Both the position numbers and the translations under genes were made by a program. The notes below the pieces were generated by a model. The model was given only the letters and a program-made list of their open reading frames with translations, ran no database searches and was not told where the DNA came from. From a virus (taxonomy: Duplodnaviria; Caudoviricetes): a stretch of 64,000 bases of DNA. The stretch is from positions 1 through 64,000 of IMG/VR virus record IMGVR_UViG_3300029288_000101; one strand, written 5' to 3'. Below are positions 5,299 to 37,987 of the stretch, in pieces; within the stretch, counting starts at the first letter, position 1, and each line of letters starts with the position of its first letter.

Positions 5299-6057
5299 TT
5301 AAATTGTTTTTAATCCTTTATTCCAAGGAATTTGGCCAATATGAGCTAAACTCATATTTCTTCTCATTCTTTTTGTATAAAATGTTCCTTTTGCATAAGA
5401 ATTTCCTTTATTTAATTCGCTTAATTTTCTTTTACATTCCTCAGATTTTGGTTTTCCTTTCATTCTCTCACTCACTTTTCTCTTAAATTCTTCAGATCTT
5501 TTTGCTCCTAGAGAATTTTTATTTCCCTTCATAGACTCACTCATTTTTCTTTTAGTTTCTTCTGAGCGTTTCAGTCCTATTTGCGCTTTTGCACTTTTTC
5601 TTATATGCTCCTTAGAATTATGCACACCTAATCTTAAACTTCTAAATTTTTCTTTTGCTTCTGGAAATTCTCTATAATGTTTCTTTAGAGATTTACTTAT
5701 TTTTTCTAATGTTTCTTTAGTTACTTTTTTCCCTGTTCTTAATTCAGAACCCAATTTCTTTAATTCTGCGTAATCTTCAGCAGAAATTTCATATCTAACT
5801 TGAGTATTTTTATTCTTAACAAATGCCATACAGAACCAAGCATATTGTATTTTTATATTATTAGGTAACATCTTCGCTAACCATTTATGTGCTAAATAAT
5901 GTTCTTGAGCTGTTAAGACTATTGTATAATCATTTAATTCTATACATTTTGGAAGTGGATGATGTTTCTCTACATACCCAAAAGGTCTCTTTCTCTTCTC
6001 TGCTTTATTCATCAAAGCAAAATACATCTTTTCATATATTTCTATTTCTTTTATCAT
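5299..6057 (-). CDS. HNH homing endonuclease with NUMOD3 repeats
   Basis: [19 protein letters not shown]; repeated [10 protein letters not shown] motifs. Confidence 0.88.
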
Positions 6058-6058
6058 T

Positions 6059-6943
6059 TTATTTCAATATTTTTGTTACTTTATTTTTTAAATTTATTAT
6101 TTGTGTTTTATTCAAAGCAGGCTGAACTCCTATACTGGTCTGGGTTGTGATATTACTAACTTCTGTTATTATATCGTTAAAAAGTCCTTTTAAGCTATAA
6201 TCCTTATTTCTAATATCAAACTTGCCATCTTTATCAATAGTAATAACATTCCCAAATTCATCGCTATAAGAAAAACCAATACCTCGAGAATAATTAATTA
6301 AGGTTTCTGACTCACTATCCTCAACGTCATTTTTTATTATTATATTTAATTCATCCAAAGACTTTATTTGAGTCCTAATTGCTTCCGTCAATATATTCCC
6401 GTTAACATTTACGTCTAATTCTCCTTGTTCCTCAGAATTTAAGACATTAATTAATAATTTATTCTTTAAAGAACTTTTTGCATCTACAGTTAATACCAGC
6501 AAACCTTCATTTGCATTTCCAGATATTTCTATATTAGAATTTTTTGTTTCCTTTTTTATTGAAAAACTATCAGGCAAAATCGAAGTCAATTCACTATCTT
6601 TTGTTAAAACCCCTACTGCCACTGGTTGATTCCATTTTGGAATATTAACCCACACTATCGCGCTTCCTACTTTCTGAATCTTCGAATTAGAATCAAATTC
6701 AGGAAAAACTAAATCCACTAAAATGTGTTTTGGTATTCTAACATTATCAATTCTCTCAAATTCACTAATAAGAGAGACAGTTTGTTTTTGAATACACATT
6801 TTCCTATAAGTTTCTGGGTCAGACCCAGCATCTGTAGGAACTACAATATAACCAATACCAGCAGAAGCTCTAATTCCCGGGACTCCTCTACGACTAACTG
6901 GCCGATTTCTATTAAACATAATTATTTTATTTTTTTCTTCCAA
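6059..6943 (-). CDS. Baseplate central spike (gpV/gp5-like)
   Basis: Follows the hub gene; OB-fold-like N-half (VGSAIVW..P..VG) and beta-rich C-half. Confidence 0.5.
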
Positions 6944-21778: not shown

Positions 21779-22819
21779 TTATCTTGCCAACATTCCTCTT
21801 GTCCAACCTTGTTCTAAATAAATATTTAGTTCTTCAGGTTTAATGTATTTGCTAATTTCTCCATTGTTAATACATTTCTTACCACACATATCTTTTTTCT
21901 TTCTACTAATTGCTTCTGAAAATTTAATTCTATTTTTAGATTTTAATAAACCCTTAAACCAGCGATGTTCTAAATAAAATTGAAGCTCCTCTGCTTTTAC
22001 AAATCTACTTATCTTTCCATTATTTACACCAATCTTACCTGTAGAACTTTTTCTTTTCAATTCTCTAGTTTCTAAAGAATTCTCACCTAAACCTTTGCTC
22101 CAGCCTTGTTCTGAATAAGATTCCAGTTCTTCTGGCTTTATGAATTTTCGTCCTTCTCCTTTATGAATCCAAATTTTTCCTTTATTATTTGCTGTCTGTC
22201 CTGGTTTAAAACAACCAGAATTATCTTTGTAAGCGTTTGGGTGCTCTTTGACGAATTTTTGTTGAGCTAACTTCATATTCTCGCAAGCTTCCTCTGATTT
22301 TAATTTTACCTCAGGATGCTCTTTGTAGAATTTCTTGCGTGATTTGCTTTGTTTATTTCTTGTTTCTGAAGAAGGTTTGTGTCCAACCTTAAATTTTGAC
22401 ATTTTCTTTCTATGTTCTTCGCTTTTAGGTTTATTCTTTAAAGCATCTCTAATTTTATCTTTTGATTCTTGTCTCCAAACTCTTTCTTTGCATGCTTTTG
22501 CAATTGCTTGCTTCGCTTTCTCTTTATGTTCACTCTTAAATCCACCACCACCTCTTGTTAAATTATATCCTATCTTTGGATTTGTAGCATCTAATTTCTT
22601 TATAAAAACTATCTCCCAAGCATTTAATTGGTCATCAGCTTTACAATGTTTTAAGATTTCTTTCTTAAAGTTCTTCTTGCCATATTTCTTAATAGCTCTA
22701 CTAATTAATTTACCAGAACCAAAATATTCAGGATTATTATAACTATCTTGACCAACATAAATTTTACTATTTATTATATTTGTGATTAAATAAATTATTC
22801 TATCTTTCTCTTTTTTCAT
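21779..22819 (-). CDS. GIY-YIG (Seg-like) homing endonuclease
   Basis: IIYLITN..N.KIYVGQ..Y.GSG..KYG..F.KEIL..GYN; NUMOD3 and NNG...GW repeats. Confidence 0.9.
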   Translation of the reverse strand: MKKEKDRIIYLITNIINSKIYVGQDSYNNPEYFGSGKLISRAIKKYGKKNFKKEILKHCKADDQLNAWEIVFIKKLDATNPKIGYNLTRGGGGFKSEHKEKAKQAIAKACKERVWRQESKDKIRDALKNKPKSEEHRKKMSKFKVGHKPSSETRNKQSKSRKKFYKEHPEVKLKSEEACENMKLAQQKFVKEHPNAYKDNSGCFKPGQTANNKGKIWIHKGEGRKFIKPEELESYSEQGWSKGLGENSLETRELKRKSSTGKIGVNNGKISRFVKAEELQFYLEHRWFKGLLKSKNRIKFSEAISRKKKDMCGKKCINNGEISKYIKPEELNIYLEQGWTRGMLAR

Positions 22820-22917: not shown

Positions 22918-24423
22918 TTACAAGCCAATATTAATAAGTCTAGTCATCTTTTTAGGTGCAAACAAGAGCATTGTACCATACAATAACACCATAAAACGTA
23001 CAGCAGGGCTGATGATTGCGAGGTCCATTTTCATGAGAGGTGCCAGTTGGCGGAAAGCGTAACATTCTTCATCATTTTGAATTAGGAATGCCTGGTCAGT
23101 GTTAGGAAGTATCCTATTTACATCACGAACTACATTACCTGCTCCGCCATCATAACCAGCTGTTCTTTCAGCAGCAGAAATGGTAAATAATGGCCAGAAA
23201 GTAGTTGAAGCCACAGAAACAGGAGCTTTCGTACTTCTGTAGATAATAAAACCAGTTGCAGGATTTGCTCCACCAGCAGGTGTAAATGCTAAATCAACAG
23301 CACCGCCAGCAAGAATTGCAGCAACCCCACCTGGATTAAGTACTGTAATAGCACCTTCTCCAAAACGGTTTATTGGACATACAGCATAATAATAATTGCC
23401 AGCATCACCAGCACCCCATAAACTGTTTGCAGCAGTAGGAGCAACAGGAGTTGCACTAATAGCAACTACAGCACCAGGAGCTAACACTGAAGTGGCAGCT
23501 GTTGTAGAGGTCTTTTTGTTTTCTTTATTTAAAAAGATATCATAGTTTAAATTCACACGACCATATTGTGAATCAAAAGCTACAACTCTCTGTCCCATTA
23601 CACCTGCAGCAACCTGGTCGCTGTTAGGAGCAATAAGTTTATTTCCGTAAAAATTTTTGACAAATGTCGAAAGAACCTTTGGCGGAGCAAAGAAGTCAGA
23701 ACCAAAACCGTGGTTCTCAACGATACCTTCATTTGCAGCTTCCAGATGAATTTCTTTCAGATAATCACCACGTAAATCAACTACAGAAGGATTATCATTA
23801 TAATATGCATTTTTATCAGCATAATCAGTGCTAAAATGTTGAGCATATAGACCATTAAATTCTTCCGGAATGATAGCTGAATTAGCACGAGCAATTGCAC
23901 GGTCAACTTTACGCAAAATCCAAAGAGAGCCATTCTTTACTTCTCTGTCAATTACACTACCAATCATTGTATTTACCAATGTCATCGGATGTGTTACAGA
24001 TTTTGTTACTCCTAAGAATTTTACTAACTGTGCACGTCTTACATACGTACTGTCTTCTTCATTCGGAAGTTCGCCCTCAACTACAAAACCACCTCTTTCA
24101 GCACCATAACTGGTTAGTTGATTAAATTCTTCAACTGTGTTATAAGCTGGGAGCTTCGGTACTTTTTTCCACAGCATTATTTCACTTTCTTTAAAGGTGA
24201 TAAGTTTCAGAGTTTTATCCAAACTTTCAACTTTCAAAGGAGCACCAGAAGCAGTTGTTGAGTTCAACGTCTGCATTCCTGTTATTTCCTGTGCTTCAAG
24301 AGCTTTTGACAATTCATTCAATTGTTCTTGAGTTGTATTAGCATTGCCAGCTAATACTTGGTCTACAACATTAGGATTTTGATAATCCTGCATATTGATT
24401 CCTAAATTCATCATATTATTCAT
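22918..24423 (-). CDS. Major capsid protein (Herelleviridae-like)
   Basis: ELSKAL..G..GA.LK.ESLD..LK.T, YG..G.F..E, EF.GL, L.P.MK..LA...LYG...L.APKK. Confidence 0.92.
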   Translation of the reverse strand: MNNMMNLGINMQDYQNPNVVDQVLAGNANTTQEQLNELSKALEAQEITGMQTLNSTTASGAPLKVESLDKTLKLITFKESEIMLWKKVPKLPAYNTVEEFNQLTSYGAERGGFVVEGELPNEEDSTYVRRAQLVKFLGVTKSVTHPMTLVNTMIGSVIDREVKNGSLWILRKVDRAIARANSAIIPEEFNGLYAQHFSTDYADKNAYYNDNPSVVDLRGDYLKEIHLEAANEGIVENHGFGSDFFAPPKVLSTFVKNFYGNKLIAPNSDQVAAGVMGQRVVAFDSQYGRVNLNYDIFLNKENKKTSTTAATSVLAPGAVVAISATPVAPTAANSLWGAGDAGNYYYAVCPINRFGEGAITVLNPGGVAAILAGGAVDLAFTPAGGANPATGFIIYRSTKAPVSVASTTFWPLFTISAAERTAGYDGGAGNVVRDVNRILPNTDQAFLIQNDEECYAFRQLAPLMKMDLAIISPAVRFMVLLYGTMLLFAPKKMTRLINIGL

Positions 24424-24483: not shown

Positions 24484-26187
24484 TTATTGAACAAGTGTTA
24501 TGCCTTTTTCAAGTTTTAATCTGTTAACGATATCAGCAGGTAACTGACCAGCACTTTCAAATAATGTCATTGCTTTTGCAAAACCGTCATCAATAACACC
24601 TTTTTCAAAGGTAGCTGAATCAAGAATTGATAACACTTGAGCTCTTTGTTTGCTTATTGAATAGGTATTTTTTGACTCTTTTGTTGCTTCTTGATTTTCT
24701 GGGAAGCGTTCCATTGCTTTCCTAATTGCCTTACCACCTCTTGCTGGTGCTTCTTCAAGTTCTTCAAATTTTCTTTCAATCCTTTGGTCCATATCTTTAA
24801 GAATAGTAGCTATGGCTTGAAATTTCAGGTCATTCTTTTCATTTAAACTATTAATTGCTTTTTCAATTATAGTCTCTTCTTGTTCATCAGAATCAAGGGC
24901 TTTCTTTATTTTAGAAGTAACACATTTTTTAATTTTCTTTTTAGGAACTTCTTCCTCTTCAACATCATCATCTTCGTCTTCCTCATCTCTGTCTTTTTCG
25001 TCTTCATCGATATCATTATCCCTATCTTGGGCTTTCTTTATTGTTTTCTTTTCTTCTTCTTCGTCTTCATATTCAGGCTCGTCTTCATCGTCTTCATCAT
25101 CCTCATCATCGCCTTCTTCAGCGTCATCTTCATCTTCTTCGTCTTCTTCATTTCCTTCTTTTTTTAACTTTTTTGATTTTTTAGATTTTTTCAATTCATC
25201 TTCTTCATCATCTTCATCGGTTTTAGCTTTTTCAATAGTTTCTTCTTCATCTTCTTTGCCAATTCCTAAAGTGTCGTATGCTTTCTGAATCATATCATCA
25301 GTAATTTCAGATTTTTCTTCGTTTTTCATAATATTTTGAGTTAAATTAAAGATTTCACATGCTTTTGCAATGTTTATACCTGAATTGTCATCAAATATTT
25401 TTTCAAACACTTCCGCTTTAGAAAAATACTTCTTTGATTGTTTCTGTTTTTTTTCTGATGAAATTAAGTCTTTCTCATTTCCATCCACATGCTCTCTTTT
25501 AAGAGCTTTTCCTGATGGAGTATCTGTTTCTAATGCTTTGAAAACTATATTACCATCAGTATCAACCAAAACTCTAGTCCCGTCTTTTCTTGTTACATCA
25601 CAAATATATTTTACTGTACCTCCGTTTGCTTTTTCTTCAGAAAGTACCTCATACTCTAGAACAGGAGTATCGTCGTCTTCAAAATCATTGTCCATACTTT
25701 TAATGATTTCTGCCAATGTGTGGGAGTTCTTAGGCAAATATGTAACAGCAACTCCTGTTATGACAGCCTTTGTTATCTTCTTGGGATTCATAACATCCCT
25801 TTCCTTAGCAGAACCTTCTATTGAAAATCCTAACCTTCTTGTCTTAGAGTTTTTTTCTAATACCTCAGCAAGTTCATATACTTCACGAGCAATTTTTGAA
25901 TCAGGATAGAGGTCACATTCTACATACAAGCCCTTCTTCGTAACCTCAGCCTTGGATGGTTCGCCAATCACAGTCTTTGGAGAACCTTTCACCTGGTGAT
26001 GCCAGTTAACAAGACCCTTTGAGGTAAGGTACGATATGTCGAATCCCTTCGTTACTAAAGTCTCTCCATCCGTGTCAACATCCTCAGTACTAGCGATTCC
26101 ACCAAGACGCATAATTTCCTTACCTTCTTCGTCTTTTGCTTTACTAATTTGAAGAGGAACCCAAAAATTAAAATTTTTTTCTTTCAT
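24484..26187 (-). CDS. Prohead protease fused to an acidic scaffold-like region
   Basis: GIAST...D.DGE, NWHH, IGEP, LGFSIEG, VAVT..P.N..T; D/E-rich tract; many xxKA motifs. Confidence 0.88.
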   Translation of the reverse strand: MKEKNFNFWVPLQISKAKDEEGKEIMRLGGIASTEDVDTDGETLVTKGFDISYLTSKGLVNWHHQVKGSPKTVIGEPSKAEVTKKGLYVECDLYPDSKIAREVYELAEVLEKNSKTRRLGFSIEGSAKERDVMNPKKITKAVITGVAVTYLPKNSHTLAEIIKSMDNDFEDDDTPVLEYEVLSEEKANGGTVKYICDVTRKDGTRVLVDTDGNIVFKALETDTPSGKALKREHVDGNEKDLISSEKKQKQSKKYFSKAEVFEKIFDDNSGINIAKACEIFNLTQNIMKNEEKSEITDDMIQKAYDTLGIGKEDEEETIEKAKTDEDDEEDELKKSKKSKKLKKEGNEEDEEDEDDAEEGDDEDDEDDEDEPEYEDEEEEKKTIKKAQDRDNDIDEDEKDRDEEDEDDDVEEEEVPKKKIKKCVTSKIKKALDSDEQEETIIEKAINSLNEKNDLKFQAIATILKDMDQRIERKFEELEEAPARGGKAIRKAMERFPENQEATKESKNTYSISKQRAQVLSILDSATFEKGVIDDGFAKAMTLFESAGQLPADIVNRLKLEKGITLVQ

Positions 26188-26219: not shown

Positions 26220-26879
26220 TTATTTTTCTTTTTCTCGCCTTTTCTCCCAACCTATTTTCGCAGACTCACTCATCTTTTCCAATGTCTCTTTCGTATAAAC
26301 ATTTGTTTTTCCTTTGTGCCAAGGTTCTTGATTTTTCTTAAAACCATGAGTATTTCCAATCAAACCTTCGTTCAATCTTCTTACAACTTCAGGATGTTCT
26401 TTAAAATATTTCTTACAAGATTTACTAATTTTCTTTTTTGTCTTTCTTGATAATTTACCTCCCCTACGAGTCTCGCTCATTTTCTTTTTCGCTTCTTCTG
26501 GCATCTTTCTTCCTGTTGCTGCTTCTCTCATTAATTGTTTTGTTTTTTCTGAAACAGTTCGACCTTTACCACCTTCTCCTCCATCTGTCATGTTATAACC
26601 AAACTCATCACCATGTTTGCAAATATTTGTTTTATATTTAGCTATATAAAATATCTCCATCTTATCTAACAAATTTTCAGGACAAATACAAACTCTCTCA
26701 ATCTTAAAATTATCTATCCCATATTTTTTGATTGCTTTATGTAAGCGAAAAGCACCTTTTTTAGATTCAGATTTTTCTATATGTCTTTGGAATCTCTTTA
26801 AATAACCATCTATGGTTTGTCCAAAATACAATTTATTGTTTACAATACAAATTATCTTATATATTTCACCTTTTCTCAT
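26220..26879 (-). CDS. GIY-YIG homing endonuclease (NUMOD3)
   Basis: GEIYKI..NNKLYFGQT, R..H, KYG, GYNMTDGG. Confidence 0.88.
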   Translation of the reverse strand: MRKGEIYKIICIVNNKLYFGQTIDGYLKRFQRHIEKSESKKGAFRLHKAIKKYGIDNFKIERVCICPENLLDKMEIFYIAKYKTNICKHGDEFGYNMTDGGEGGKGRTVSEKTKQLMREAATGRKMPEEAKKKMSETRRGGKLSRKTKKKISKSCKKYFKEHPEVVRRLNEGLIGNTHGFKKNQEPWHKGKTNVYTKETLEKMSESAKIGWEKRREKEK

Positions 26880-26966: not shown

Positions 26967-29900
26967 TTATTTCTTTTTCTTTCCTTTTAAATATTCAAAA
27001 CCTTTCTTCGTTAAATGAACAGTCTCATCTTCACCTTCAAATTGATTAAGTCCAACAAAACCTTTCCTCTGTAAATGTCCTAAGATTGCATTATCTGATT
27101 TTCCTCCACTTACAGAACTAGTCCAAACTGGATTATTTATAACACTTTCATCATCAGAATCTTGATACTCACTTTTCAAAACTTTTCTTAACACAATAAT
27201 TTCTTTTTCTGTTAATCCTCCAACTTTCTCTCTCTTCTTTTCTTTTATTGTTGTCTCTTTCTTCACTTCTTTCCTTACTTTTTCTTTTTGCTCATCTGTT
27301 AATTTAACATATGCCTTACCATACATTAAATTAGAACGAGAAGCGAATTTCATATTTAATTTTTGTAATTCTTCTTTTAAATTCTCTTCTGTTCCTTTCT
27401 TTTCCCCTTTAATTGGTTTTACTTTCTCTGGAATCTTAGTCAATATCCTATCTCCATATTTTACTTTCACATAAGCACCAAGTCTGCCTTCTCGCATCAT
27501 CATAAATTCTGCTGCCACTTCTTTTCCATCCACCATTATTTTTACTTTATCACCTCGTTTGAAGCCTAATGGATGTTCAATTTCTTTTGCCATGCCATAA
27601 GATTTAATTTTATCAAAAATCTTATCTCCTTTCTTTTGCTTATCTTCTGATGAGAGTATTTTTATTGTTTTCTTTGGTTGAATCTTTGCTTCAACTACTT
27701 TTGTATCTTCATCTTCTTTTCTTCGTTTATTTTGAAAATTCACTTTTGCTTTTGAATAACCTTCAAAAGCAACTTCATTAAAATGGAGTTTTTTTCTCAG
27801 TTTTTCTAATTCTTCTGGCTCTGTATTAATATTATGCTCTTTTATTCTTATCTCTTCTTTATAATATTTTATAGCATTCTCAGTAGATTCAATTAATTCT
27901 TCTAGACGTTGTTCATATAGTTTTTTTCTCAAAGTAAAGCCTTCTTCGTCCCATGGCTTCACCCAAACCCCTTGACGTTTTCCTTCTTTATTTATAATAA
28001 TTTTCTTTTGAAGTTTTGACAAATCCTTCTTCGCCTTTTCAATATCACCCAGCATACCTTCTTCACCTTGCTGGCTTAATATTTTATATTGTAAATCTGT
28101 AATTAAAATATTAGATTCTAAAAATTCTGATAGATCTTCTGCTTTAATTATTTTATCATCAAAACTTTTTTTAATTTCCTTATTTCTTTGTTTTGCCATT
28201 TCTTCCATCAACTTTAATAAATCATAATAATCTGAAATTTCTCTTAAATGGTCTTCAGCAATTTTACCGTAAACAATTTTTTCAGCCGGAAATTCTCCAG
28301 TTTCTTTATAATAATCTTTAATGAATTGAAAAGTATCTTTGTGTTCTTTTTCCACCTCCACACCCAACTTCAATTGCTTTTTATCTAATTTCTTATCTTC
28401 TGATTTTTTGTCTCCAATTTGTTCTCCTTGTACTTCTTTTGAAGCAAAAGAATAAATAAAAGACTCAAGTTCTTCAGTTTCTATACCAAGCTCTTCAGCT
28501 AACTTATGTACTTCCTCATCAGGTATTTTCTCTCCTTTAAATTCCTTAAGAAAATCTATTACTTTTGTTTTCTCTTTTTTTGTTAACGTTTCCTGAATTG
28601 CCTTCTCAAAGCCATGTTTCTTTGCTTCTGAATAGGCAATAGCTAATGCTTGGTCTCTATCCGTAACAATCTCACCACTCCCTGAATGTAGAGTTCCTCT
28701 TGCAAATTCTCTCATCACTACAGCTATTTTATCTTTACCTTTTAATTTTTTTCGTTTTTTAGTACCAGCACCAAGTTTATCTGAATGTTCCATTGCCATA
28801 TCTTGTTCTTTCTTTGCTTTTTCCACTACATTTTCTTCTTCTAAATTCTTATAATCATCTTTAATCTGATAAATATGCATAGAGCCTGGAATATCCTTTT
28901 CTGGGTCATGTTTCAAAAATGCTTTCAATTCAAAACTATTATCATCTTTATGTCCTGCTGCCATCCAAGCTTCTAATAATTTCACTCCTCTATAATGAGT
29001 AACAATTCCAATATTTTGTCCTTTATATTTCTTTGCTATTCTTTTTATAAAATTCAAAAATCTATCCTTAAAAATATTAAAAGATTCCCCTTTAGAATCT
29101 ACATCTTCCTTACCTTCTTTAGCAGGAACAGGTTTATCTGGATGATTTATGTAAAATATTATCTTTTTCTTGTTCTTAAAGAAATCCTCACCTTGAAACT
29201 TTCCTAAATTCCAAGGGCGCAAATCAAAAGTATAATCTTTTACAGGCAAATCAACCTTCTCAGAAATAATATCGGCTGTTTGTTTAGATCGTTTTAAATC
29301 TGAAGAGAACAACACATCTAAGTCATCCTTTTTTAAAGTTTTTGCAACATCTTTTGCATTCTTAATGCCCTTCTTAGTCAGTGGAATATTTAAATGACCT
29401 CTGACAAAATCTTTAGAATCATTGTTTTCTGCATTCAGCTTTGTATTGCCGTGCCTAATTACAAATATATTTGTCGTTCCTTTTTTATCTTTAGGAATTT
29501 CTTGTTGAATAGCTTTTTCCATAATATTTTCTTCTTTTAATTCTTTATCTTCTTGATTAATATCCGTACCATTTTCTTCTTTTCCTTTTTCATCAAAAAT
29601 CCATTGCAAATTTTCTGGAAGATTGTATTCATCAGGGTCAAGCGACTCATCAGAAAAATCATCAGTATCATCATCATTTTCTTTTTTCTTAATCTGATTA
29701 TTAATTTCTGATAAAGTGGGTACTTTCCAAGTTTGTTCTTCTTCTATAGCCTTTAATATTTCTTCCTTATTTACACCAAGCTGTAAAATCCAAGCATCTA
29801 TTATGTGGGGATTTACATAACTTGATTTCGCCATGCTCGGTGAATTATTGAGTTTTTTTGATACTCGGTTGAAAGTATCTTTCAGCTTATCACTTATCAA

Positions 29901-31091
29901 TCTTTTTATCTTCGATTTTTTTTCTGGCAAAGGTGGCGGAGGCATTGAAAATAAAATATCCTTGGCTATGCTACTTGCAATATAGGTTCTAAGGTCTTTT
30001 AATTTAAAACCCTTAAAACCTAACTTCTCACGAAAAGTATCAAATATTTTTTCTTTCGGTACATCAAATAAAAATTCTTTATTTTCTTTCTTTGCTTCAA
30101 ATTTTCGCTGTAATAAATAATCAGCTAATTTTTGATTCTTAATTGAAGCTACATTATGCTTATATGATTTTCCTGTAAAGGAAAAATTAATTTTATCTCC
30201 ATCAATTTCTACACTATCTGGTGATAAGGTTGACACACCACGATTTCCTGTTTTCTTAAATAATGTTTTATCTCCTGGTCTTAATGCTGTATTTGCAATA
30301 ATATTAATGATTGCTGCTGATTGGGCAACATCTTTATCTTCATTATCATAAAAATTATCTGTCTTTATTTTTACCGCTTTCACCGAAGAGTCTGTAATTT
30401 TAGAAATTCTCTTCCACTTTACTTCTGCATTACGTTGTAAAAATTCTCTTGTATAAGCAGAACGAATCTCACCTGTTTTTGGGTCTCTCCATTGCATCAC
30501 CCAATGGTTTAAAGGATCGGTCTCATCGGTTTTTACTTGCTCTTGAGGGACTCCTATTGGTAAACGATTTAAGTTATGTCGTTTCGATATCTCTCCAAAC
30601 CATTCTATTTTCTTTGGCTCTTTTGCTTGTTTTTCTTTCTTTTCAACTCCCTCACCCTTATTTTCTTTACCTTCAGTTTGTTGATTGTCTGTTTCTTCTT
30701 TTGTTTTACTTGTTTTTCTTTTCTCAAGTTCTTTTTTTACCGCTTCTTCTATCTTAGGATCTTTTTTATCTCTTTCTAAATAGGCTTTCAAATCTTTAGT
30801 CTCTGTTTCCTTTGCAAAATCAGTTAAACTCTTCTTTGGTTTATTTTCCTCTTCCCCACCACTCTTCTTTTTATTGAAAGATTCAGCTTCCTCTTTACTC
30901 ACCCATTTTGTTATTTTTTTTCCATGAACATCTGTACTACTTCGTTTAACTAATTTCCCTTCATGAGATGGATCGCCTTTAAACTTATTTGTGTTAAAGG
31001 CTTTTTCAAAAAGAGTTTCATAAGATTTCTGAATAATATTCTTCTTCTCTTTTTTATTTAATAAGATTCTATATGCTTCGTCCTTCTCCAT
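26967..31091 (-). CDS. Multidomain head-region polyprotein: topoisomerase IB, histidine phosphatase, DUF6496-like, DUF5661-like, SH3-like, winged helix
   Basis: TopIB residues ALRPG/FTGKS/KDLRT/LNNSP/SSYVNP; IRHG..SSDLKR..QTA..VTH; VMREF..G.LHSGSG..V..R.QA.AIA.SEA; G.EVEKEH..IA.DHL.E..DYY..L. Confidence 0.8.
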   Translation of the reverse strand: MEKDEAYRILLNKKEKKNIIQKSYETLFEKAFNTNKFKGDPSHEGKLVKRSSTDVHGKKITKWVSKEEAESFNKKKSGGEEENKPKKSLTDFAKETETKDLKAYLERDKKDPKIEEAVKKELEKRKTSKTKEETDNQQTEGKENKGEGVEKKEKQAKEPKKIEWFGEISKRHNLNRLPIGVPQEQVKTDETDPLNHWVMQWRDPKTGEIRSAYTREFLQRNAEVKWKRISKITDSSVKAVKIKTDNFYDNEDKDVAQSAAIINIIANTALRPGDKTLFKKTGNRGVSTLSPDSVEIDGDKINFSFTGKSYKHNVASIKNQKLADYLLQRKFEAKKENKEFLFDVPKEKIFDTFREKLGFKGFKLKDLRTYIASSIAKDILFSMPPPPLPEKKSKIKRLISDKLKDTFNRVSKKLNNSPSMAKSSYVNPHIIDAWILQLGVNKEEILKAIEEEQTWKVPTLSEINNQIKKKENDDDTDDFSDESLDPDEYNLPENLQWIFDEKGKEENGTDINQEDKELKEENIMEKAIQQEIPKDKKGTTNIFVIRHGNTKLNAENNDSKDFVRGHLNIPLTKKGIKNAKDVAKTLKKDDLDVLFSSDLKRSKQTADIISEKVDLPVKDYTFDLRPWNLGKFQGEDFFKNKKKIIFYINHPDKPVPAKEGKEDVDSKGESFNIFKDRFLNFIKRIAKKYKGQNIGIVTHYRGVKLLEAWMAAGHKDDNSFELKAFLKHDPEKDIPGSMHIYQIKDDYKNLEEENVVEKAKKEQDMAMEHSDKLGAGTKKRKKLKGKDKIAVVMREFARGTLHSGSGEIVTDRDQALAIAYSEAKKHGFEKAIQETLTKKEKTKVIDFLKEFKGEKIPDEEVHKLAEELGIETEELESFIYSFASKEVQGEQIGDKKSEDKKLDKKQLKLGVEVEKEHKDTFQFIKDYYKETGEFPAEKIVYGKIAEDHLREISDYYDLLKLMEEMAKQRNKEIKKSFDDKIIKAEDLSEFLESNILITDLQYKILSQQGEEGMLGDIEKAKKDLSKLQKKIIINKEGKRQGVWVKPWDEEGFTLRKKLYEQRLEELIESTENAIKYYKEEIRIKEHNINTEPEELEKLRKKLHFNEVAFEGYSKAKVNFQNKRRKEDEDTKVVEAKIQPKKTIKILSSEDKQKKGDKIFDKIKSYGMAKEIEHPLGFKRGDKVKIMVDGKEVAAEFMMMREGRLGAYVKVKYGDRILTKIPEKVKPIKGEKKGTEENLKEELQKLNMKFASRSNLMYGKAYVKLTDEQKEKVRKEVKKETTIKEKKREKVGGLTEKEIIVLRKVLKSEYQDSDDESVINNPVWTSSVSGGKSDNAILGHLQRKGFVGLNQFEGEDETVHLTKKGFEYLKGKKKK

Positions 31092-31094
31092 TGT

Positions 31095-32015
31095 TTAATC
31101 AATTTCTTTACCATTTACTTTAATCTTAATCTTTGATTCTGTTCTACGCTTTACTGATATAGGTTTATCAAAAGCTTTAGTTTTATCATCCCATTCCATT
31201 CCAATAGATATTGTTTGTAGGGTACATCTGCACCATGGGTGCATCGGTCCTACGACTGGTCGCATTTCAGCTTTCTTTCTCCCAATGTTATTCCCATTAA
31301 ACACTAATTTTTGCAAGTTAAATACAATTGGTTTACTGCCTAATCCTTTTGTTAAATATGCTTTTTGACAAACCTCACAAGCTTCTGGCTTTACATCTTT
31401 ATAAACCAAAGCATCTTTACCTTTTGTTTTAAGGATTTGCATCGCTCTTCCCATATCAAAAGCATCATGCATCACATAATCAGCTACACGGTCAAAATCT
31501 TTTGCCCAATTTCCTGTACTTTTTGATAATTCTAAAGAGAGTTCCTTAATTGATTTTCTTTCAATTATAGCTCTCTCTATTTGTTGTTTAATAGCTTTTT
31601 GGGCTCTAAATTTCTTCCTCTTATCTCCATCAATTATTATTTGAGTAAAATCTTTGCTCATTTTATCTCCCAAACCTTTAATGTCATTATAAGTTTGAAG
31701 TTTAACATATTGCAAGGCTTCTTGTTCTAATTGAGTTAAGGGTAAAAATTTTTGTTCTGATAGAAATTTCTTGAATTGATTAAAGGTTAATTCTTTAATT
31801 CCAGCTTCTTTTACTGCTGCACTGAGCATACCAAATTTAAACTGTTCTTCGATTTTACCTTCTTTTGGAAAATCTGATTTTTTAAAACCAACACCGTTTA
31901 ATAGTTTTTTATCTTTCTCAGTCAAAATCTCAGAACCCACTTGCTTTGCAATAAATAACAAATGAAAATGAGTTACTATCTCTTTAATCTCTTGTATTTG
32001 TTCTGAATTTAGCAT
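31095..32015 (-). CDS. MuF/gpF-like minor head morphogenesis protein
   Basis: ACEVC and C-terminal GPMHPWCRCTL motif; near portal. Confidence 0.8.
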   Translation of the reverse strand: MLNSEQIQEIKEIVTHFHLLFIAKQVGSEILTEKDKKLLNGVGFKKSDFPKEGKIEEQFKFGMLSAAVKEAGIKELTFNQFKKFLSEQKFLPLTQLEQEALQYVKLQTYNDIKGLGDKMSKDFTQIIIDGDKRKKFRAQKAIKQQIERAIIERKSIKELSLELSKSTGNWAKDFDRVADYVMHDAFDMGRAMQILKTKGKDALVYKDVKPEACEVCQKAYLTKGLGSKPIVFNLQKLVFNGNNIGRKKAEMRPVVGPMHPWCRCTLQTISIGMEWDDKTKAFDKPISVKRRTESKIKIKVNGKEID

Positions 32016-32022
32016 TATTTAA

Positions 32023-33777
32023 TTAATCTCCTGTCCAAGTACCCAATTTCGAACCTTTTCCTTCTATAAACACTTTAGCTTTCTGACCATAGCCTTTTGC
32101 TGCTGCTTCTTCTTGCCACTGCTTACTTGTTTTCTTGCTTGCCTCTTCTCTCTCTCTTCGTTCTTCCTCTTTTATTGCTTTTTCTCTATGTTTTTCATAT
32201 AACTCAGAAAAAGTTTTTTCAATTTTCATACCCTTTCTTATAATATCCTCAATCTTAGGTAAATTTTCTAATGCTACTTTTTTGCCTTCTGTAGTACCAT
32301 GTTCTAATTCATTCTCATAACGTCTTCTCCATTCTCTCGAATTAGACATTATTTGCCTAAACTTTACATAATTAACTGATATATCTTTTGATTTTAAAAT
32401 TGACGTGTCTATACTTTCATCAGACGCTTTTTGTCTTTCTGTTCTTTCTTTTCTTTCAAATGGTTTTATATCTCTAAATTTTGAATAAACTTTTTGTAAA
32501 ACACTTTGTAATTCCGGAGTTAATTTAGATGATTCTTTATTTTTATTCTTCTTCTCTTCTCTAACAGTTTTTAAGGTTCTCTGAATAAAATCGTCCTCAG
32601 ATTCTCCTGGGTTAGAAACATAAGTTTTACCTTCATATTCAATGTTCAATAATTTTTGTTCTTTTTTCTTTGATTCTTTTGATTTTGTGTTTTCTTTTGG
32701 TTTTCTCTCAACCTTTTGCAGTTTATCCATTCTTCTATACAAAACTTTTCCATTGAAATTAATCAATTCAAAAGCACCTCTTTTAGTATCTCGATGCTCT
32801 ATATATGTTCCCTCTACTAAACCACCATGAATACTCGGAAATTTAACAATATCGCCTTTTTTAAATTTTAATTCTTTCTCTTCCTTTGACTCTTTTAATT
32901 TTTTAGGTTCTTCTTTTTTCTTTGGCTCTTTTTGTTCCTTATTTTGACTAACTTTCTTAGTCTCTTTCTTCTCCTTTCCTCTAGCTGTATTAAAATAAAT
33001 AACATTCCCTTCCTCATCAATTTTAAACTTCTTTTTATTATCTTCAAGCTTCCTACCTACAGTCATTAATCTTTTTGTCATCCTACCATTCCTGGTTACA
33101 TCCACTAATTCTTTATGCTTCCCTTCGCCATAATCTTTCTTTGATTTTGCTTTTTCAATTTTATCAAAAAAATCAAAGTCTTCAGATAAAACATTATATG
33201 CTTTTTGGATTTTATTATAATTCCTTAATTCTTCTTCCTTCTTAGTAAGTTCTTCTTTAAACCATTTTAATTCATCGGGTCTCTCACTACTTTTAAATGC
33301 GCTTATCTGTTTAGTCAAAGTCTTAATTCTTTCTCTCAATTCTTTTTTAGTAGGTTTTTCTTCATTATTTATTGTTTCTTTCTTTTCCTCCTTTATTACT
33401 ATTTTATTAGGCTGTTGAAAAGCAGCATTCAAACTAATATCTTCAGAACCAATCAAGCGATGCTGATAGAATGTGGTCCCATTTTTATTTGTTACCTTTA
33501 CATTTTCATAATGCTTTGCCTTTTCAATATCATTTTTATCAAACCAAAAATGTTCTCTCTTTCCTTCTTCTGAGATTTTAATAATTTTAATTAAATTAGG
33601 ATTAACTCTCGCTTTCTTAATATCTGTAATAAGTTCTACATGAGTTAAAATTCCGCTCTCAATTGCTTTATCAAAAGCTTCTTCAGTCAAAATTATCTCT
33701 TGTTGAGTGTTTAAAAAAGAAGCGTTTATTTGCTTCTTTATTTTTGCTTGATGTGTTGAAAGGTCTTGAAAATCCAT
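32023..33777 (-). CDS. Lys/Glu-rich modular head-region protein
   Basis: Multiple xxKA motifs followed by beta-hairpin-like segments; SH3-like FKKGD.VK domain. Confidence 0.6.
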   Translation of the reverse strand: MDFQDLSTHQAKIKKQINASFLNTQQEIILTEEAFDKAIESGILTHVELITDIKKARVNPNLIKIIKISEEGKREHFWFDKNDIEKAKHYENVKVTNKNGTTFYQHRLIGSEDISLNAAFQQPNKIVIKEEKKETINNEEKPTKKELRERIKTLTKQISAFKSSERPDELKWFKEELTKKEEELRNYNKIQKAYNVLSEDFDFFDKIEKAKSKKDYGEGKHKELVDVTRNGRMTKRLMTVGRKLEDNKKKFKIDEEGNVIYFNTARGKEKKETKKVSQNKEQKEPKKKEEPKKLKESKEEKELKFKKGDIVKFPSIHGGLVEGTYIEHRDTKRGAFELINFNGKVLYRRMDKLQKVERKPKENTKSKESKKKEQKLLNIEYEGKTYVSNPGESEDDFIQRTLKTVREEKKNKNKESSKLTPELQSVLQKVYSKFRDIKPFERKERTERQKASDESIDTSILKSKDISVNYVKFRQIMSNSREWRRRYENELEHGTTEGKKVALENLPKIEDIIRKGMKIEKTFSELYEKHREKAIKEEERREREEASKKTSKQWQEEAAAKGYGQKAKVFIEGKGSKLGTWTGD

Positions 33778-34219: not shown

Positions 34220-36322
34220 TTATTTTTTCTGTTTTAATTTATTCTTATAAACTGAAATGGCAGAAGCGTAATTTGCCTTCTTTCCACCTTTTGTTAAATG
34301 AGTCACAGCTTTTACCCAAACTCCTTTATCTTTAACAAAAGCAGGAGGATTCTTTATCAAATGTTTTAAATCAAATTTGCCTTCTTTTTTAGTCCCTTCC
34401 TCTTTCCCCTCAGAAGTCTCAATTTTCTTTGCTTCTACTTTCTTCACTTCTTCCTTTTGTGGTTCTTGTCCTGGTCTCAAAATTCGCTTGGGTAATCTTG
34501 CAAAAATCTTATCTCCATATTTTATAAATACATATTCACCACGCTTTCCTGTATTATGACTTTTTACTACACCCTCAACCATCTTACCTTCTTTATTTAA
34601 GAATTTCACTTTATCTCCTGCCTTAAAATGTTCTCCCTCTGGGGTAAAGTCTTTTTTACTTTCTTTCTTTTTTTCTTCTTGAGTTCTTGGTACTATATTC
34701 CCACTCTCATCAACAGTATATTTACTTTTTTCTTGCCTTTTGCGTTCTTCTTCAAAACCTCTCATCTTCGCTTCTTCTTCTTGCTTTACTCTCTTTATCT
34801 GTTCTATCCAAGTTTCTTTCTTTAGCTTGTCTTCCTTCTTATTTTTGGTTTCTTCTATCCCAGTTTTATTTTTCTTTTTAAATATTACTTTAAATGCTTC
34901 TTCAACGAAATCTTTTACTTCATAATCATTATAATCCAATGAATCTATCATTTCTTCTATTGCAATTTCTTGTTTTTGATTTAAAGCCTTTCCAGATTTT
35001 TCTTTCTTCTCATTCTTCTCTTCTTTTCCTTCTAGTTTAGCTATTGAATTTTTAACTGATTTTATTTGATGAAGAACAGCTTTTTTGTTCATTTCAGATG
35101 TCTTAGGCAACATAGTAATATATTTTTTAAGGTTTTGTTTTTCTACCTCAAGTTTATGTTGTTTTTGTTCTTCAGTTTTCGGTTCTTTTTTAACTTCGTC
35201 TTTCTTCTCACCACTAATTTCATAATTATTTTCTAAGTCAACATTTTGAAAGCGAAGTTTTAAATGAGACGGCTCTTTTATAACTACAGTAACCTTTGGT
35301 CCAACACTAACAACTGTAAAGGTTTTATTCACACCACTTTCAAGTTCATGTTTATCATTATCCACACTAAATTTATATAATTTTGATATCTTAGTTCTAA
35401 ATTTCATACCAGGTTGTAATGTATTTTTTAATTCTTCTTTAACATCTTTCTTCTCACCACTTTCTACTTTTTTATTTTCTCCAATAATTCTTAATTCTCC
35501 ATTAGGGTTGATAGAGACTTTATCAGCTTTTAATTTCTCCTTTAAAATTCTCTCTTTTGCTGATGGATTCATCCTATTTATTTGAGACTTTGTGAATTTT
35601 AAATTTAAAAATTTATCTTCTTCTTCAGAACCAAGTTCTTGCCTTCTCTGAAAGGTTTTATTTTTACCGTGGACTGTTACCATTCCCATATGTTTAGCTT
35701 TTTCCAATTCTCCTTCCTCTGCTTTCTCTATTTTTGTTTTTTCGCAATGAATTGTAATATCTCCTTTTTTAATATTTAAATCTTTTGTTTTTTCAGACCA
35801 ACTTTCTGGGAGGATATCTTCTTTTCCAAGTTCTTTTGCTCTCCTCTTAATCCATGCCTTTGCTGCTGCAGGGTCTTTTGCTCTACCAACAGATTTTATT
35901 GCATCTTTCAAATCTTGGCTATTCCTAATAGGAAATGAACCATCCTTCATTGCCTCTCCTTTCTTTGAAAGGTTTTCACGTTCTTTAGTTGAAAAATCTG
36001 TTTTGTTTTTAGCTTTCTCAATATTATTATCAACATACATAACAGAAATATTTCCTGCTTTGTCAGAAACTTTTAAAACCTTTAAAGATTTTAAATCATT
36101 CCACGCTTTATCTATCAATTCCTTCGGTTTACTGTTTGATAGTTCTGCTTTCTTTAATTCTGTTTGAAAAATTCCAATTGCTTCAGAATTATAGTATTTC
36201 CAACCAAATTCCTCCACTGCTTTTTGAAATAATTCGTTAGTTACAATGATTTCTTTTTGAACACTACCACCTACACGCTGACTTACCAACGCTTTTTGTA
36301 AAACATCAAATTTTGCTTCCAT
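34220..36322 (-). CDS. Lys/Glu-rich modular head-region protein with DUF6582-like and SH3-like domains
   Basis: ERE.L...GEAM.DGSFPI....DL..AI...GRA.....AKAWI.RRA..LG....LP.SW; FKAGDKVK domain; many xxKA motifs. Confidence 0.65.
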   Translation of the reverse strand: MEAKFDVLQKALVSQRVGGSVQKEIIVTNELFQKAVEEFGWKYYNSEAIGIFQTELKKAELSNSKPKELIDKAWNDLKSLKVLKVSDKAGNISVMYVDNNIEKAKNKTDFSTKERENLSKKGEAMKDGSFPIRNSQDLKDAIKSVGRAKDPAAAKAWIKRRAKELGKEDILPESWSEKTKDLNIKKGDITIHCEKTKIEKAEEGELEKAKHMGMVTVHGKNKTFQRRQELGSEEEDKFLNLKFTKSQINRMNPSAKERILKEKLKADKVSINPNGELRIIGENKKVESGEKKDVKEELKNTLQPGMKFRTKISKLYKFSVDNDKHELESGVNKTFTVVSVGPKVTVVIKEPSHLKLRFQNVDLENNYEISGEKKDEVKKEPKTEEQKQHKLEVEKQNLKKYITMLPKTSEMNKKAVLHQIKSVKNSIAKLEGKEEKNEKKEKSGKALNQKQEIAIEEMIDSLDYNDYEVKDFVEEAFKVIFKKKNKTGIEETKNKKEDKLKKETWIEQIKRVKQEEEAKMRGFEEERKRQEKSKYTVDESGNIVPRTQEEKKKESKKDFTPEGEHFKAGDKVKFLNKEGKMVEGVVKSHNTGKRGEYVFIKYGDKIFARLPKRILRPGQEPQKEEVKKVEAKKIETSEGKEEGTKKEGKFDLKHLIKNPPAFVKDKGVWVKAVTHLTKGGKKANYASAISVYKNKLKQKK

Positions 36323-36364: not shown

Positions 36365-37987
36365 TTAATCTTCTTTATTCAAATTATTTAAAAATAATTG
36401 AAGACTTTTTTCAATTGGATTAGTTTCCTCTTCTTCAGGAACAAGAATAGGATTTTGTTCTTCCATTGATTCTTGTCCTTCTTCGCCACCGCCTTGCTGT
36501 TCTTGCATTTGATTCTGTTTCTCCATTTGCAATGCATTTGTATAGACCCCGTCTAACAAAATATCTCCTCCCTGCAAATCTTTTAAACCATGAGATCTTC
36601 TCACCTCATTAACAGTTTTAGATACTTTTGATAATTTAGTATCTAAATCTACTTCTTCTTGAGGAGTTAATCCTGTTAGTCCTTCAAAACTAAATTCATA
36701 TTTTCCTTTATAAAATTGAGAAACCAAAAACTTATTTAATCTCTTTTGTAAAAATTTCAATATTGGAATTAAACCTTTATCTCTACTCCATTTCAATCTC
36801 GCTTCATTGTTACCTTCAAACAAAGACTTCTGACCACTGTTACCACCTTGAGAAAAATTGACTTCTGATGGATCCATGGCGAAAACTGCACACGCTAAAG
36901 TCAACAAATATTGTTGATATTTATTATATTCCATCTCACGATTTGACTTTTGCAAATCTACCCATTCTGCTTTATCTGCTTCTAATATTGGAGTTTTATG
37001 AGCATTATAAACGCCACGCATTTGAGAGTTCCACATTTGTTTGAATTCTTGAACCTTACTTTCGTTCAACATTCCTGAAACTCTTAAAATCCCTTTTGGT
37101 GCACTGCCTTGTTTGAAAAATCTCCTATTATATTCATCTCCCCATAACATAGCTGTTACAGTTGCTGTTAGTTCTTCCAACTCACTTACACCATAACCAT
37201 TTAAATAAATACTTGTGTCTGGGTTTCTTACACCAAAACACATTTCCCAAGGATAAAATTCTGCTTTTACTTGTTGTTGATATACTTGAACATAATTAGG
37301 ATAATAACCTTTTATTTTCTTTCTATTAGAAGTTTGGCCTGCTTGATAATTATCATCATCATAACTATCTGCTATGCGCATCGTTGAACTATCTACTGCA
37401 TAAAATTCACACGGCACACCTTTCCTGTTATGAATAACCTCAAAACACATCTGGTCGTATGTCAATGAATCTCTTATTATTTTTCTAACAAAACCATCAA
37501 AATCATCAGCTTCCCAGCTCTGACCGTCACCACAATTCTCAAGAAACTTAATTATCTCTTCTACTTCTTTTCGTTCTTCTTTTGTTAATTCTTCATTTTG
37601 ATCTTCTCCTTCAAAATTCTTCTTTTTCTTTATTTTATAGCCTATGCCAAATCTATCTGATTGTGGTTCTGCAAATGAAGCTATTTGGTTAATTCTTGTT
37701 CTAATTATTGCATTTATTATTGGCGTTTTCGCCATACTCTTTAGCATATTATAGCTTAATGCTGTTGGTTTATCTTTAAAGCCAAAAGAAGCATTAAATG
37801 CTTGAGGGTCAAAAAGAAAAGATTTGCGATCTCCAGTTTCTCTTGTCTGTATCTGATTTAAAACTTGAGAAGCTTTAATGATATCTGAAGGATTATCTCC
37901 AGTCATCATACCTTCTAAAAGTTTAAATTTTTTTACTTCAAGAATTTGTTGAGCTTTCTCAATTTTTGTTAAAGTTGCAGAAGACAT
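36365..37987 (-). CDS. Portal protein
   Basis: RDSLTYDQ..FE, N.YG.SELE, YN.RFF.QG..PKGIL, MEY.KY, DPSEVNF, S.DKGL.P.L, TVNEVR. Confidence 0.92.
   Translation of the reverse strand: MSSATLTKIEKAQQILEVKKFKLLEGMMTGDNPSDIIKASQVLNQIQTRETGDRKSFLFDPQAFNASFGFKDKPTALSYNMLKSMAKTPIINAIIRTRINQIASFAEPQSDRFGIGYKIKKKKNFEGEDQNEELTKEERKEVEEIIKFLENCGDGQSWEADDFDGFVRKIIRDSLTYDQMCFEVIHNRKGVPCEFYAVDSSTMRIADSYDDDNYQAGQTSNRKKIKGYYPNYVQVYQQQVKAEFYPWEMCFGVRNPDTSIYLNGYGVSELEELTATVTAMLWGDEYNRRFFKQGSAPKGILRVSGMLNESKVQEFKQMWNSQMRGVYNAHKTPILEADKAEWVDLQKSNREMEYNKYQQYLLTLACAVFAMDPSEVNFSQGGNSGQKSLFEGNNEARLKWSRDKGLIPILKFLQKRLNKFLVSQFYKGKYEFSFEGLTGLTPQEEVDLDTKLSKVSKTVNEVRRSHGLKDLQGGDILLDGVYTNALQMEKQNQMQEQQGGGEEGQESMEEQNPILVPEEEETNPIEKSLQLFLNNLNKED

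Follow-up and report, generated by a model that had tools for sequence, protein, structure and literature searches.

Poxviruses encode a type IB topoisomerase (TopIB), known from vaccinia virus (H6R) and variola virus (PDB 2h7f, 3igc, and 1a41), which has a two-domain fold without the cap and linker of the eukaryotic enzymes and a sequence specificity for CCCTT. Tailed phages are thought to depend on the topoisomerases of the host or on type II enzymes of their own that are made after infection. In vaccinia virus, TopIB is packaged in the virion together with the early transcription machinery, as an initial annotation of the DNA analyzed here had stated, and crosslinks there to DNA ligase (PMC6336343). 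That DNA is a stretch of 64,000 nucleotides (the window), positions 1 to 64,000 of the Caudoviricetes record IMGVR_UViG_3300029288_000101 of IMG/VR, and the element in question is a TopIB domain carried within a 1374-amino-acid (aa) open reading frame (ORF) at 26967-31091 on the minus strand, hereafter the TopIB ORF. The source record spans 109,727 bp and is rated 100% complete; the window is densely coding, has a low G+C content (~30%), and bears nearly all of its genes on the minus strand.

In phage T4, tagged internal proteins and Alt are cut by the prohead protease at L/I-x-E, a short motif common to capsid and scaffold proteins, and are delivered with the DNA. Ejection proteins of SPN3US (and phiKZ) are likewise capsid-targeted, protease-processed cargo. 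We know of no topoisomerase among the cargos of T4, SPN3US, and phiKZ, and these cargos bear no sequence relationship to the TopIB ORF. Described TopIBs outside the poxviruses include the cellular stand-alone enzyme of Deinococcus radiodurans (PDB 2f4q and 3m4a) and the stand-alone TopIBs of the jumbo phages PaBG, Motura, Lu11, and phiRSL1, which are treated as recombination or topology genes (PMC7824862). Together with top1E of Bacteroides phage BS162P1, whose gene lies among small genes of unknown function, these phage enzymes have been interpreted as serving replication or recombination. A type of carrier is described in the polyvalent proteins, in which many enzymatic domains are joined in one polypeptide encoded among virion genes, and for which MuF or portal fusions and a virion-gene context have been read as signs of packaging and of injected effectors (Iyer, Burroughs, Anand, de Souza, and Aravind, 2017; PMC5512222). 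TopIB is not among the domains treated in that study, in which "topoisomerase" occurs only in the reference list.

The TopIB ORF joins a known enzyme to an equally familiar kind of carrier, and no paper was found that describes the two combined or the accessories seen here; literature searches also returned no paper on a capsid- or virion-borne phage TopIB. On balance, we lean toward a joint explanation of the features reported below, namely that the 1374-aa ORF encodes a modular phage-head cargo protein of the polyvalent type, the TopIB of which would be loaded, cut free, ejected, and used as an early swivel.

A complete type IB topoisomerase domain

Residues ~160-445 of the TopIB ORF are a complete TopIB of the bacterial/poxviral type with an R-K-R-N-Y active site. 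It is the sole recognizable topoisomerase in the 109.7-kb genome, in which no type IA or type II topoisomerase was detectable. The domain and its catalytic codons lie as follows.

29748..30641, minus strand: TopIB, aa 151-448 (core ~160-445), consisting of a small N-terminal beta domain and a catalytic domain, and ending in ILKA (445-448); from Pfam PF01028, PDB, AlphaFold2, Foldseek, and VIA-align
30279..30281, minus strand: codon of R271, the first catalytic Arg, corresponding to variola R130; R in 153/153 non-gap family rows
30168..30170, minus strand: codon of K308, the catalytic Lys, corresponding to variola K167; K in 154/154 non-gap family rows
29988..29990, minus strand: codon of R368, the second catalytic Arg, corresponding to variola R223; R in 154/154 non-gap family rows
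29844..29846, minus strand: codon of N416, the Asn of bacterial TopIBs in place of the poxviral His, corresponding to variola H265 and to Asn in Deinococcus; N in 151/153 rows, with one D and one E
29817..29819, minus strand: codon of Y425, the nucleophilic tyrosine, corresponding to variola Y274; Y in 153/153 non-gap family rows

The initial annotation had placed all five catalytic positions of a TopIB within 29770-30610 (residues ~161-440), and they are indeed there. The motifs TALRPG (R271), FTGKS (K308), KDLRTY (R368), LNNSP (N416), and SSYV (Y425) were located in the translation of the ORF and aligned with the variola and Deinococcus enzymes, the variola counterparts listed above being those paired in HMMER alignments. 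Of the 156 cluster representatives of the family that were aligned, all with a complete domain retain the pentad, apart from two with D or E in place of N, and the other deviations are fragments. Since the active site is so strictly conserved, the family is evidently under strong selection.

Several lines of evidence agree on the identity of the domain. Pfam Topoisom_I matches the isolated domain (residues 151-460) at E 1e-18, with 68 bits against a cut-off of 23.7, and a genome search with the same family finds a sole location, 29820-30437 (E 2.6e-20, 68.4 bits). When all 1374 aa are scanned against Pfam, Topoisom_I does not appear at E 0.1 or below, the match being obtained only with the isolated domain. 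A sequence search of the PDB returned archaeal 6z01 (1.5e-8), D. radiodurans 2f4q (2.7e-6), variola 2h7f (2.6e-5), and vaccinia 1a41. The AlphaFold2 (AF2) model of the domain, built with 44 homologues in the alignment, reaches a mean predicted local distance difference test (pLDDT) of 92.6 and a predicted template modelling score (pTM) of 0.87. When this model was compared with the PDB by Foldseek, the top 22 matches were all TopIB (E 1e-11 to 9e-5), and the first recombinase to appear was XerH (8e-4). By VIA-align, 20 TopIB entries align at Z 17.6-20.9 over up to 290 residues with both domains covered, including the variola enzyme (Z 20.2, 262 aligned residues, model 11-294 against chain 7-293) and the human TopIB core (Z 20.9, 290 aligned residues), whereas the best tyrosine recombinase scores Z 13.7 (over 179 residues) and the alignments of this group are confined to 150-180 residues in the catalytic domain. 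A tyrosine recombinase fold had been named at the outset as the finding that would count against a topoisomerase; it was checked for, and both Foldseek and VIA-align favor TopIB. The call of a genuine bacterial/poxviral-type enzyme is thereby borne out, and the domain is very probably a real and catalytically competent TopIB, as judged from its sequence and modeled fold.

Compared with the poxvirus enzymes, the phage domain has the same two-domain fold and the same catalytic positions and likewise lacks a eukaryotic-type cap and linker, but the fourth position holds Asn rather than His, and identity is only ~17-20%. The R-K-R-N-Y site with its Asn is that of D. radiodurans TopIB, to which the catalytic domain aligns at Z 20.9 with a root-mean-square deviation of 2.8 over 203 residues and 22% identity. 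The recombinase-type R-K-H-R-H/W-Y site is absent, with Lys365, not His, three residues before R368 and Asn at the H/W position.

Head-module setting and relatives

The initial annotation had also described the domain as embedded in a head-module protein, and the flanking genes agree, with portal, MuF-like, prohead protease, and major capsid genes on the two sides of the TopIB ORF.

36365..37987, minus strand: portal gene; phrog_12 E 3.7e-55, Pfam Phage_portal E 2.4e-22
31095..32015, minus strand: gene of a MuF-like minor head protein, 306 aa, immediately upstream of the TopIB ORF; weak PHROG head-morphogenesis matches (E 3e-4), Atlas
26220..26879, minus strand: GIY-YIG homing endonuclease gene between the putative cargo gene and the protease gene; phrog_314 E 1.7e-30, Pfam GIY-YIG
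24484..26187, minus strand: prohead protease, the long C-terminal part of which is scaffold-like; phrog_1028 E 1.2e-42, matched by aa 1-165
22918..24423, minus strand: major capsid protein, with conserved LSKALEA at aa 38-44; phrog_752 E 3e-70

Along the direction of transcription, the genes follow in the order portal, 700-aa protein, 90-aa protein, 584-aa protein, 306-aa MuF-like protein, TopIB ORF, GIY-YIG endonuclease, prohead protease, capsid, a second GIY-YIG endonuclease, and tail genes. The 306-aa MuF-like protein has an Atlas feature score of 0.94 and a structural TM-score of 0.77 to clusters in which Phage_Mu_F is found in a minority (19-27%) of members.

Relatives of the domain were sought in a protein library of 1.84 billion representatives, with gene context taken from IMG/VR loci; in what follows, labels in P denote cluster representatives and labels in L viral loci or contigs. 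The library yields 2133 matches with E of 1e-3 or below, of which 664 reach 1e-10 and 131 reach 1e-30. Nineteen long metagenomic proteins (798-1948 aa) bear the domain at an N-terminal, central, or C-terminal position, and 36 of 47 long relatives also match Topoisom_I. The head order with a TopIB ORF (441-1242 aa) between the MuF-like and protease genes recurs in seven IMG/VR contigs (L001-L006 and L010), and the TopIB ORF abuts the protease gene directly in L002, L004, L005, L006, and L010. More distant phages have a stand-alone TopIB, which in L007 is encoded in a tail module, with the tail sheath on one side and the baseplate hub on the other, and in L009 close to a capsid gene. The "DNA topoisomerase I" gp84 of PaBG (L016, KF147891; 12210-13898, minus strand), with its TopIB in aa 273-556, is encoded in a head/tail gene block three genes upstream of the major capsid gene, and adjoins the virion proteins gp83 and gp81. 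The PaBG and Motura enzymes share the TopIB fold (BFVD TM 0.71-0.72), but PaBG TopIB is very distant in sequence, scoring 53 bits to the hidden Markov model (HMM) of the family, and has no acidic tail of the kind described below.

Fusions tie the domain physically to capsid parts. In P0143, TopIB is fused to a Mu-type portal (Portal_Mu), and P0155 joins a homologue of the MuF-like protein of the window (E 9e-35) to InPase and TopIB. Among the 47 long relatives, the partners include NUDIX (9/47), DUF5661 (6/47, and present as well in P0140 and P0137), and InPase (4/47), and further Zeta toxin, Kinase-PolyVal, UvrD helicase, 2H ligase, and SprT. ART-PolyVal, SAM lyase, and a full NAD-dependent DNA ligase are also found as partners in relatives. 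Several of these (InPase, Zeta kinase, NUDIX, 2H, ART-PolyVal, and Kinase-PolyVal) are the partners found in polyvalent proteins, as are the MuF and portal fusions. The ligase fusion, P0140 (1621 aa), links DUF5661 and TopIB to a complete NAD-dependent DNA ligase (adenylation, OB, HhH, and BRCT) in a single polypeptide, and it recalls the crosslinks between TopIB and ligase in vaccinia virions.

The setting used to recognize polyvalent proteins, among virion genes and with MuF or portal fusions in relatives, was thus found in the head-module position of the TopIB ORF and in P0143 and P0155. The second mark, at least two effector-type domains in one polypeptide, was found in the ORF itself, which holds TopIB, His_Phos_1, DUF6496, DUF5661, and a C-terminal PHROG module. 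From these comparisons, the TopIB is probably a capsid cargo.

Outside the uncultured phages, the family is scarce. In a search of one genome per species across 185,579 prokaryote species, a single locus was found, on a Bacteroidales contig of a metagenome-assembled genome (MAG), and its flanks show no similarity to the window. This single locus fits virulent phages rather than prophages, and the family is almost confined to uncultured virulent phages. The near absence from bacterial genomes also sets it apart from the Deinococcus enzyme. The phage of the window is an SPO1-related myovirus, probably of a Bacteroidota host, as indicated by its capsid protein, which is 45% identical to those of Bacteroides phages DAC16-23 (DAC19 included), 40% identical to that of a Chryseobacterium phage, and ~35% identical to those of SPO1-like Bacillus phages.

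The 700-aa, 90-aa, and 584-aa proteins downstream of the portal gave no family matches. By blastp, the 584-aa (32023-33777) and 700-aa (34220-36322) proteins, both on the minus strand, match each other at E 1e-6 through a small SH3/KOW-like domain. The second GIY-YIG gene lies at 21779-22819 (minus strand), and the two GIY-YIG genes break up the head operon. The insertion at 26220-26879 is absent from L002, L004, L006, and L010 and is present at the same spot in L001.

Candidate cleavage motif and accessory segments

The remaining modules of the TopIB ORF are listed from the N-terminus onward.

26967..31091, minus strand: whole ORF, 1374 aa, multi-domain (polyvalent-type) head-module protein; from the ORF list, translation, and Pfam and PHROG scans
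30999..31091, minus strand: N-terminal leader, aa 1-31, ending in IQKS (20-23) and FEKA (28-31), a candidate propeptide or targeting piece; from motif positions
30642..30998, minus strand: basic beta-hairpin tag (..SHEGKLVKR..GKKITKWV..) with a Lys-rich helical linker behind it, aa 32-150, the N-terminal extension of the TopIB module; from phmmer, alignment, and hairpin HMM
29511..29747, minus strand: acidic partner segment (..DDDTDDFSDESLDPDEYNLPENLQW..), aa 449-527, between ILKA (445) and MEKA (524); from relatives and AF2
28974..29468, minus strand: histidine phosphatase domain (His_Phos_1), aa 542-706; Pfam E 1.2e-27
28611..28736, minus strand: DUF6496, aa 786-827, with FEKA (828-831) directly after it; Pfam E 5e-7
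28200..28391, minus strand: DUF5661, aa 901-964, a frequent companion of TopIB in relatives; Pfam E 1.3e-9
27951..28028, minus strand: second basic hairpin tag, aa 1022-1047, directly behind IEKA (1017-1020); hairpin HMM independent E-value (iE) 1.4e-6
27420..27563, minus strand: small SH3/KOW-like module, aa 1177-1224, also present in the head-module proteins of 700 aa and 584 aa; matches the former by blastp at E 2e-6
26988..27215, minus strand: C-terminal module, aa 1293-1368, matching phrog_25342; PHROG E 1e-5

The His_Phos_1 domain contains the RHG motif and the second His, aligned to CobC/PhoE-type PDB matches, and the C-terminal module looks like a winged helix when judged by eye. An NCBIfam scan gave nothing useful. 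Against isolated phages, the whole 1374-aa protein finds matches only through its phosphatase and DUF6496 pieces. In Klebsiella phage RCIP0045, a hypothetical protein shares 74% identity over 39 residues with the DUF6496 piece (aa 789-827), which is unusually high for phages so unrelated.

The borders of these modules coincide with a short motif, Φ-x-K-A/S, where Φ is I, L, V, M, or F, which is a candidate site of the prohead protease. The protease-scaffold protein of the window contains 14 copies against 2.0 expected, and five of its relatives contain 13-16 against ~2 (6-8 times enriched). In the capsid proteins of six phages, LSKALEA (LLKALEA in L005) stands at residues 38-44, behind a poorly conserved N-terminus. 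Within the TopIB ORF, the stricter Φ-x-K-A occurs seven times against 2.7 expected (P ~0.02), at residues 28, 445, 524, 756, 828, 981, and 1017, and all seven positions lie outside the domain cores (P ~0.03). This placement at the module borders fits cutting by the prohead protease. Related TopIB proteins likewise carry Φ-x-K-A within their first 16-60 residues. If the motif is the cleavage site, the sequence cut would be Φ-x-K|A/S, as opposed to the L/I-x-E of T4, and a putative protease motif at the borders would, along with a dedicated acidic segment, distinguish the TopIB ORF from described polyvalent proteins. Φ-x-K-A/S is likewise over-represented in the 700-aa protein (9 against 3.4 expected) and in the 584-aa protein (6 against 2.2), and both look like sister cargo proteins of the TopIB ORF.

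The basic hairpin leader is a recurrent companion of the enzyme. Residues ~32-150, comprising the hairpin (..GKLVK..GKK.TKWV..) and a Lys-rich helix, accompany TopIB in 12 relatives at an N-terminal or internal position (phmmer E 1e-8 to 8e-21), and one or two Φ-x-K-A motifs precede the leader even where the module is internal. The hairpin HMM detects the first copy in the TopIB ORF at iE 3.6e-17. In total, the leader with hairpin tag occurs twice in the TopIB ORF and once in a 394-aa protein encoded elsewhere; contrary to the initial annotation, the HMM recovered no copies in the 584-aa and 700-aa proteins. The 394-aa protein is encoded outside the head block (54384-55568, minus strand), has the tag in the form of FEKA plus basic hairpin (hairpin HMM iE 1.5e-7), contains 6 Φ-x-K-A/S against 1.5 expected, and may be another capsid cargo protein. 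A different leader is seen in L017, where the TopIB ORF (5767-6867) and the next ORF (6968-7654; both plus strand) begin with a near-identical N-terminal stretch of ~45 aa (MKLSELRQIIKEEI..MIKVSSAL.YPKDTAVYKAA), which looks like a targeting tag of that phage lineage.

The second companion is an acidic tail behind the catalytic domain. A strict Y-x-L-P-x-W pattern is found there in 63/117 relatives, and near variants are found in others; the typical form of the motif is Y-P-L-P-D-W-W (Y-x-L-P-x-x-W), and in the 1374-aa protein it reads EYNLPENLQW. In L007 and L017, the TopIB ORF ends right behind the catalytic domain, and the acidic motif is encoded in an ORF of its own, 51 aa long in L007 and 40 aa long in L017. 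These small ORFs (L007:10823-10978 and L017:6837-6959, both plus strand) consist only of the acidic ..CDEYPLPEWWD.. segment and lie directly behind the tail-less, stand-alone TopIB, and their products are candidates for a detachable partner or inhibitor of TopIB. Since aa 449-527 of the TopIB ORF are bracketed by ILKA and MEKA, cleavage there would recreate this two-gene state. In an AF2 model that includes the tail, the motif region (model residues 341-350) is modeled with moderate confidence (mean pLDDT ~78, compared with 43-67 for the flanking linker blocks), which suggests that the acidic motif docks on the TopIB domain. The hairpin leader, the acidic tail, and a PPPPLP loop are features of the phage family that differ from Deinococcus TopIB. 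Similarly, the phage TopIB differs from the poxvirus enzyme in being one module of a 1374-aa tailed-phage protein, between the basic leader and the acidic trailing segment, and in that its packaging is proposed from comparison.

Proposed delivery and competing roles

The initial annotation had proposed a virion-delivered analogue of the poxvirus enzyme that relaxes DNA during packaging, ejection, or early transcription. The delivery half of this proposal is strongly suggested by comparison, through head synteny in seven contigs, Portal_Mu and MuF-like fusions, polyvalent partners, and border motifs; the half that concerns the site of action is the more tentative one. In the sequence of events envisaged for a modular cargo protein, the 1374-aa protein would first be co-assembled into the procapsid. 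The prohead protease would then cut it at Φ-x-K|A/S sites into the leader, the basic hairpin with TopIB, the acidic Y-x-L-P-x-x-W peptide, the histidine phosphatase, DUF6496, DUF5661, and a C-terminal DNA-binding part, and these pieces would exit the capsid together with the DNA. Once outside, TopIB would act as an ATP-independent swivel that removes supercoils of both signs by way of a transient 3'-phosphotyrosyl nick at Y425. Its substrate would most likely be the incoming phage genome, the distal end of which is still in the capsid while early transcription starts, a logic shared with the poxvirus virion enzyme. The acidic segment would most likely keep the enzyme inactive or off the DNA until delivery. 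That the swivel acts on incoming phage DNA rather than on another target is possible, at somewhat less than an even chance.

A broader form of this proposal, which we put forward tentatively and consider doubtful, is that TopIB may be a widespread, hitherto undescribed standard capsid cargo of tailed phages with a two-part timed release. The hairpin leader, or a portal or MuF fusion, would load the enzyme, the acidic Y-P-L-P-D-W-W peptide would silence it, and dilution into the host would switch it on as a swivel for the entering genome. The acidic peptide could stay part of the fusion, be released by the prohead protease, or come from its own 40-50-aa gene.

Several points weigh against the cargo explanation. 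The motif enrichment inside the TopIB ORF is modest when A and S are both counted (Φ-x-K-A/S, 11 against 5.7), ILKA falls within a helix that the AF2 model predicts at the domain end, and literature searches found no paper on where SPO1-type prohead proteases cut. The neighboring 306-aa protein is assigned to MuF on indirect grounds. Among 50,697 isolated-phage records, tblastn at E 1e-3 found no close relative of the domain, and consequently no virion proteome covers the family; relaxing the threshold to E 10 yielded only weak matches, to BS162P1 top1E and a Xanthomonas jumbo phage (E 0.2 or worse). The distant TopIB of PaBG, gp84, is not among the 14 visible bands of the published virion proteome. 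Packaging, cleavage, and activity of the 1374-aa protein are all read from sequence comparison.

Other roles have therefore to be weighed against it. Unlikely, in our judgment, is that TopIB is an injected effector that acts against the host, relaxing the negatively supercoiled host chromosome or trapping nicks, and so shutting down transcription or replication or blunting topology-dependent defence, with the acidic segment as an immunity-like inhibitor that guards the producing cell. Zeta toxin, ART-PolyVal, Kinase-PolyVal, SAM lyase, and NUDIX, all found as partners in relatives, are typical conflict effectors, and a small acidic ORF behind a tail-less TopIB resembles a toxin-immunity pair. 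TopIB is in addition absent from the Bacteroides control genome and found in 1/14 control genomes, so that the enzyme is probably foreign to the likely host. The fusions to NAD ligase and a UvrD-type helicase, however, point to DNA maintenance, and the complete pentad, K308 and N416 included, argues for balanced cleavage and religation rather than for a nicking toxin. A few dozen molecules per cell would also have to outrun the host gyrase.

It is rather improbable that the protein is an unpackaged, late intracellular enzyme with an incidental location in the head operon, where it would prepare concatemers for packaging by relaxing or resolving them as they replicate and recombine. Such a role would suit the only topoisomerase of the genome and the invisibility of PaBG gp84 among virion bands, and jumbo-phage TopIBs have been classed with recombination and topology functions (PMC7824862; PMC7412058). 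Against it stand the portal-TopIB and MuF-like-TopIB fusions, the conservation of the structural-module position across unrelated lineages, and the tags and motifs that the TopIB ORF has in common with capsid and scaffold proteins.

Very improbable is a role confined to the capsid, in which the cargo TopIB would release twist during terminase packaging or while the DNA spools out and would have none in the cytoplasm. The capsid location proposed for the enzyme and the portal-fused versions, which put it at the DNA channel, would agree with this, but a covalent nick in dense DNA risks permanent breaks, and the conserved acidic segment suggests an enzyme kept off DNA rather than engaged with it. 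To our knowledge, well-studied tailed phages package DNA without any topoisomerase.

Finally, a site-specific tyrosine recombinase or telomere resolvase-like enzyme without topoisomerase function was rejected and is almost certainly not what the domain is. The catalytic-domain fold is common to both (XerH Z 13.7, Cre Z ~10), and on special substrates TopIB chemistry can yield joined ends or hairpins. Matches to TopIB, however, exceed those to recombinases by 4-7 Z units and span both domains (260-290 versus 150-180 residues), Pfam assigns Topoisom_I, the R-K-R-N-Y site has Lys instead of His before the second Arg, and the near absence of the family from bacterial genomes (one MAG contig) disfavors an integrase of temperate elements.

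The family to which the TopIB ORF belongs is large (131 clusters at E <1e-30 and 664 at <1e-10). It offers a simple testable enzyme assay together with a candidate natural peptide inhibitor of TopIB, and a marker for capsid cargo and prohead-protease sites in metagenomic phages. It is also relevant to the question, still debated, of where viral and bacterial TopIB genes came from. In the broader form of the proposal, capsid TopIBs would possibly be kin to the source of viral TopIB lineages. A particle-borne topoisomerase would represent a new class of delivered enzyme in phages and a direct phage parallel to the poxvirus virion enzyme.

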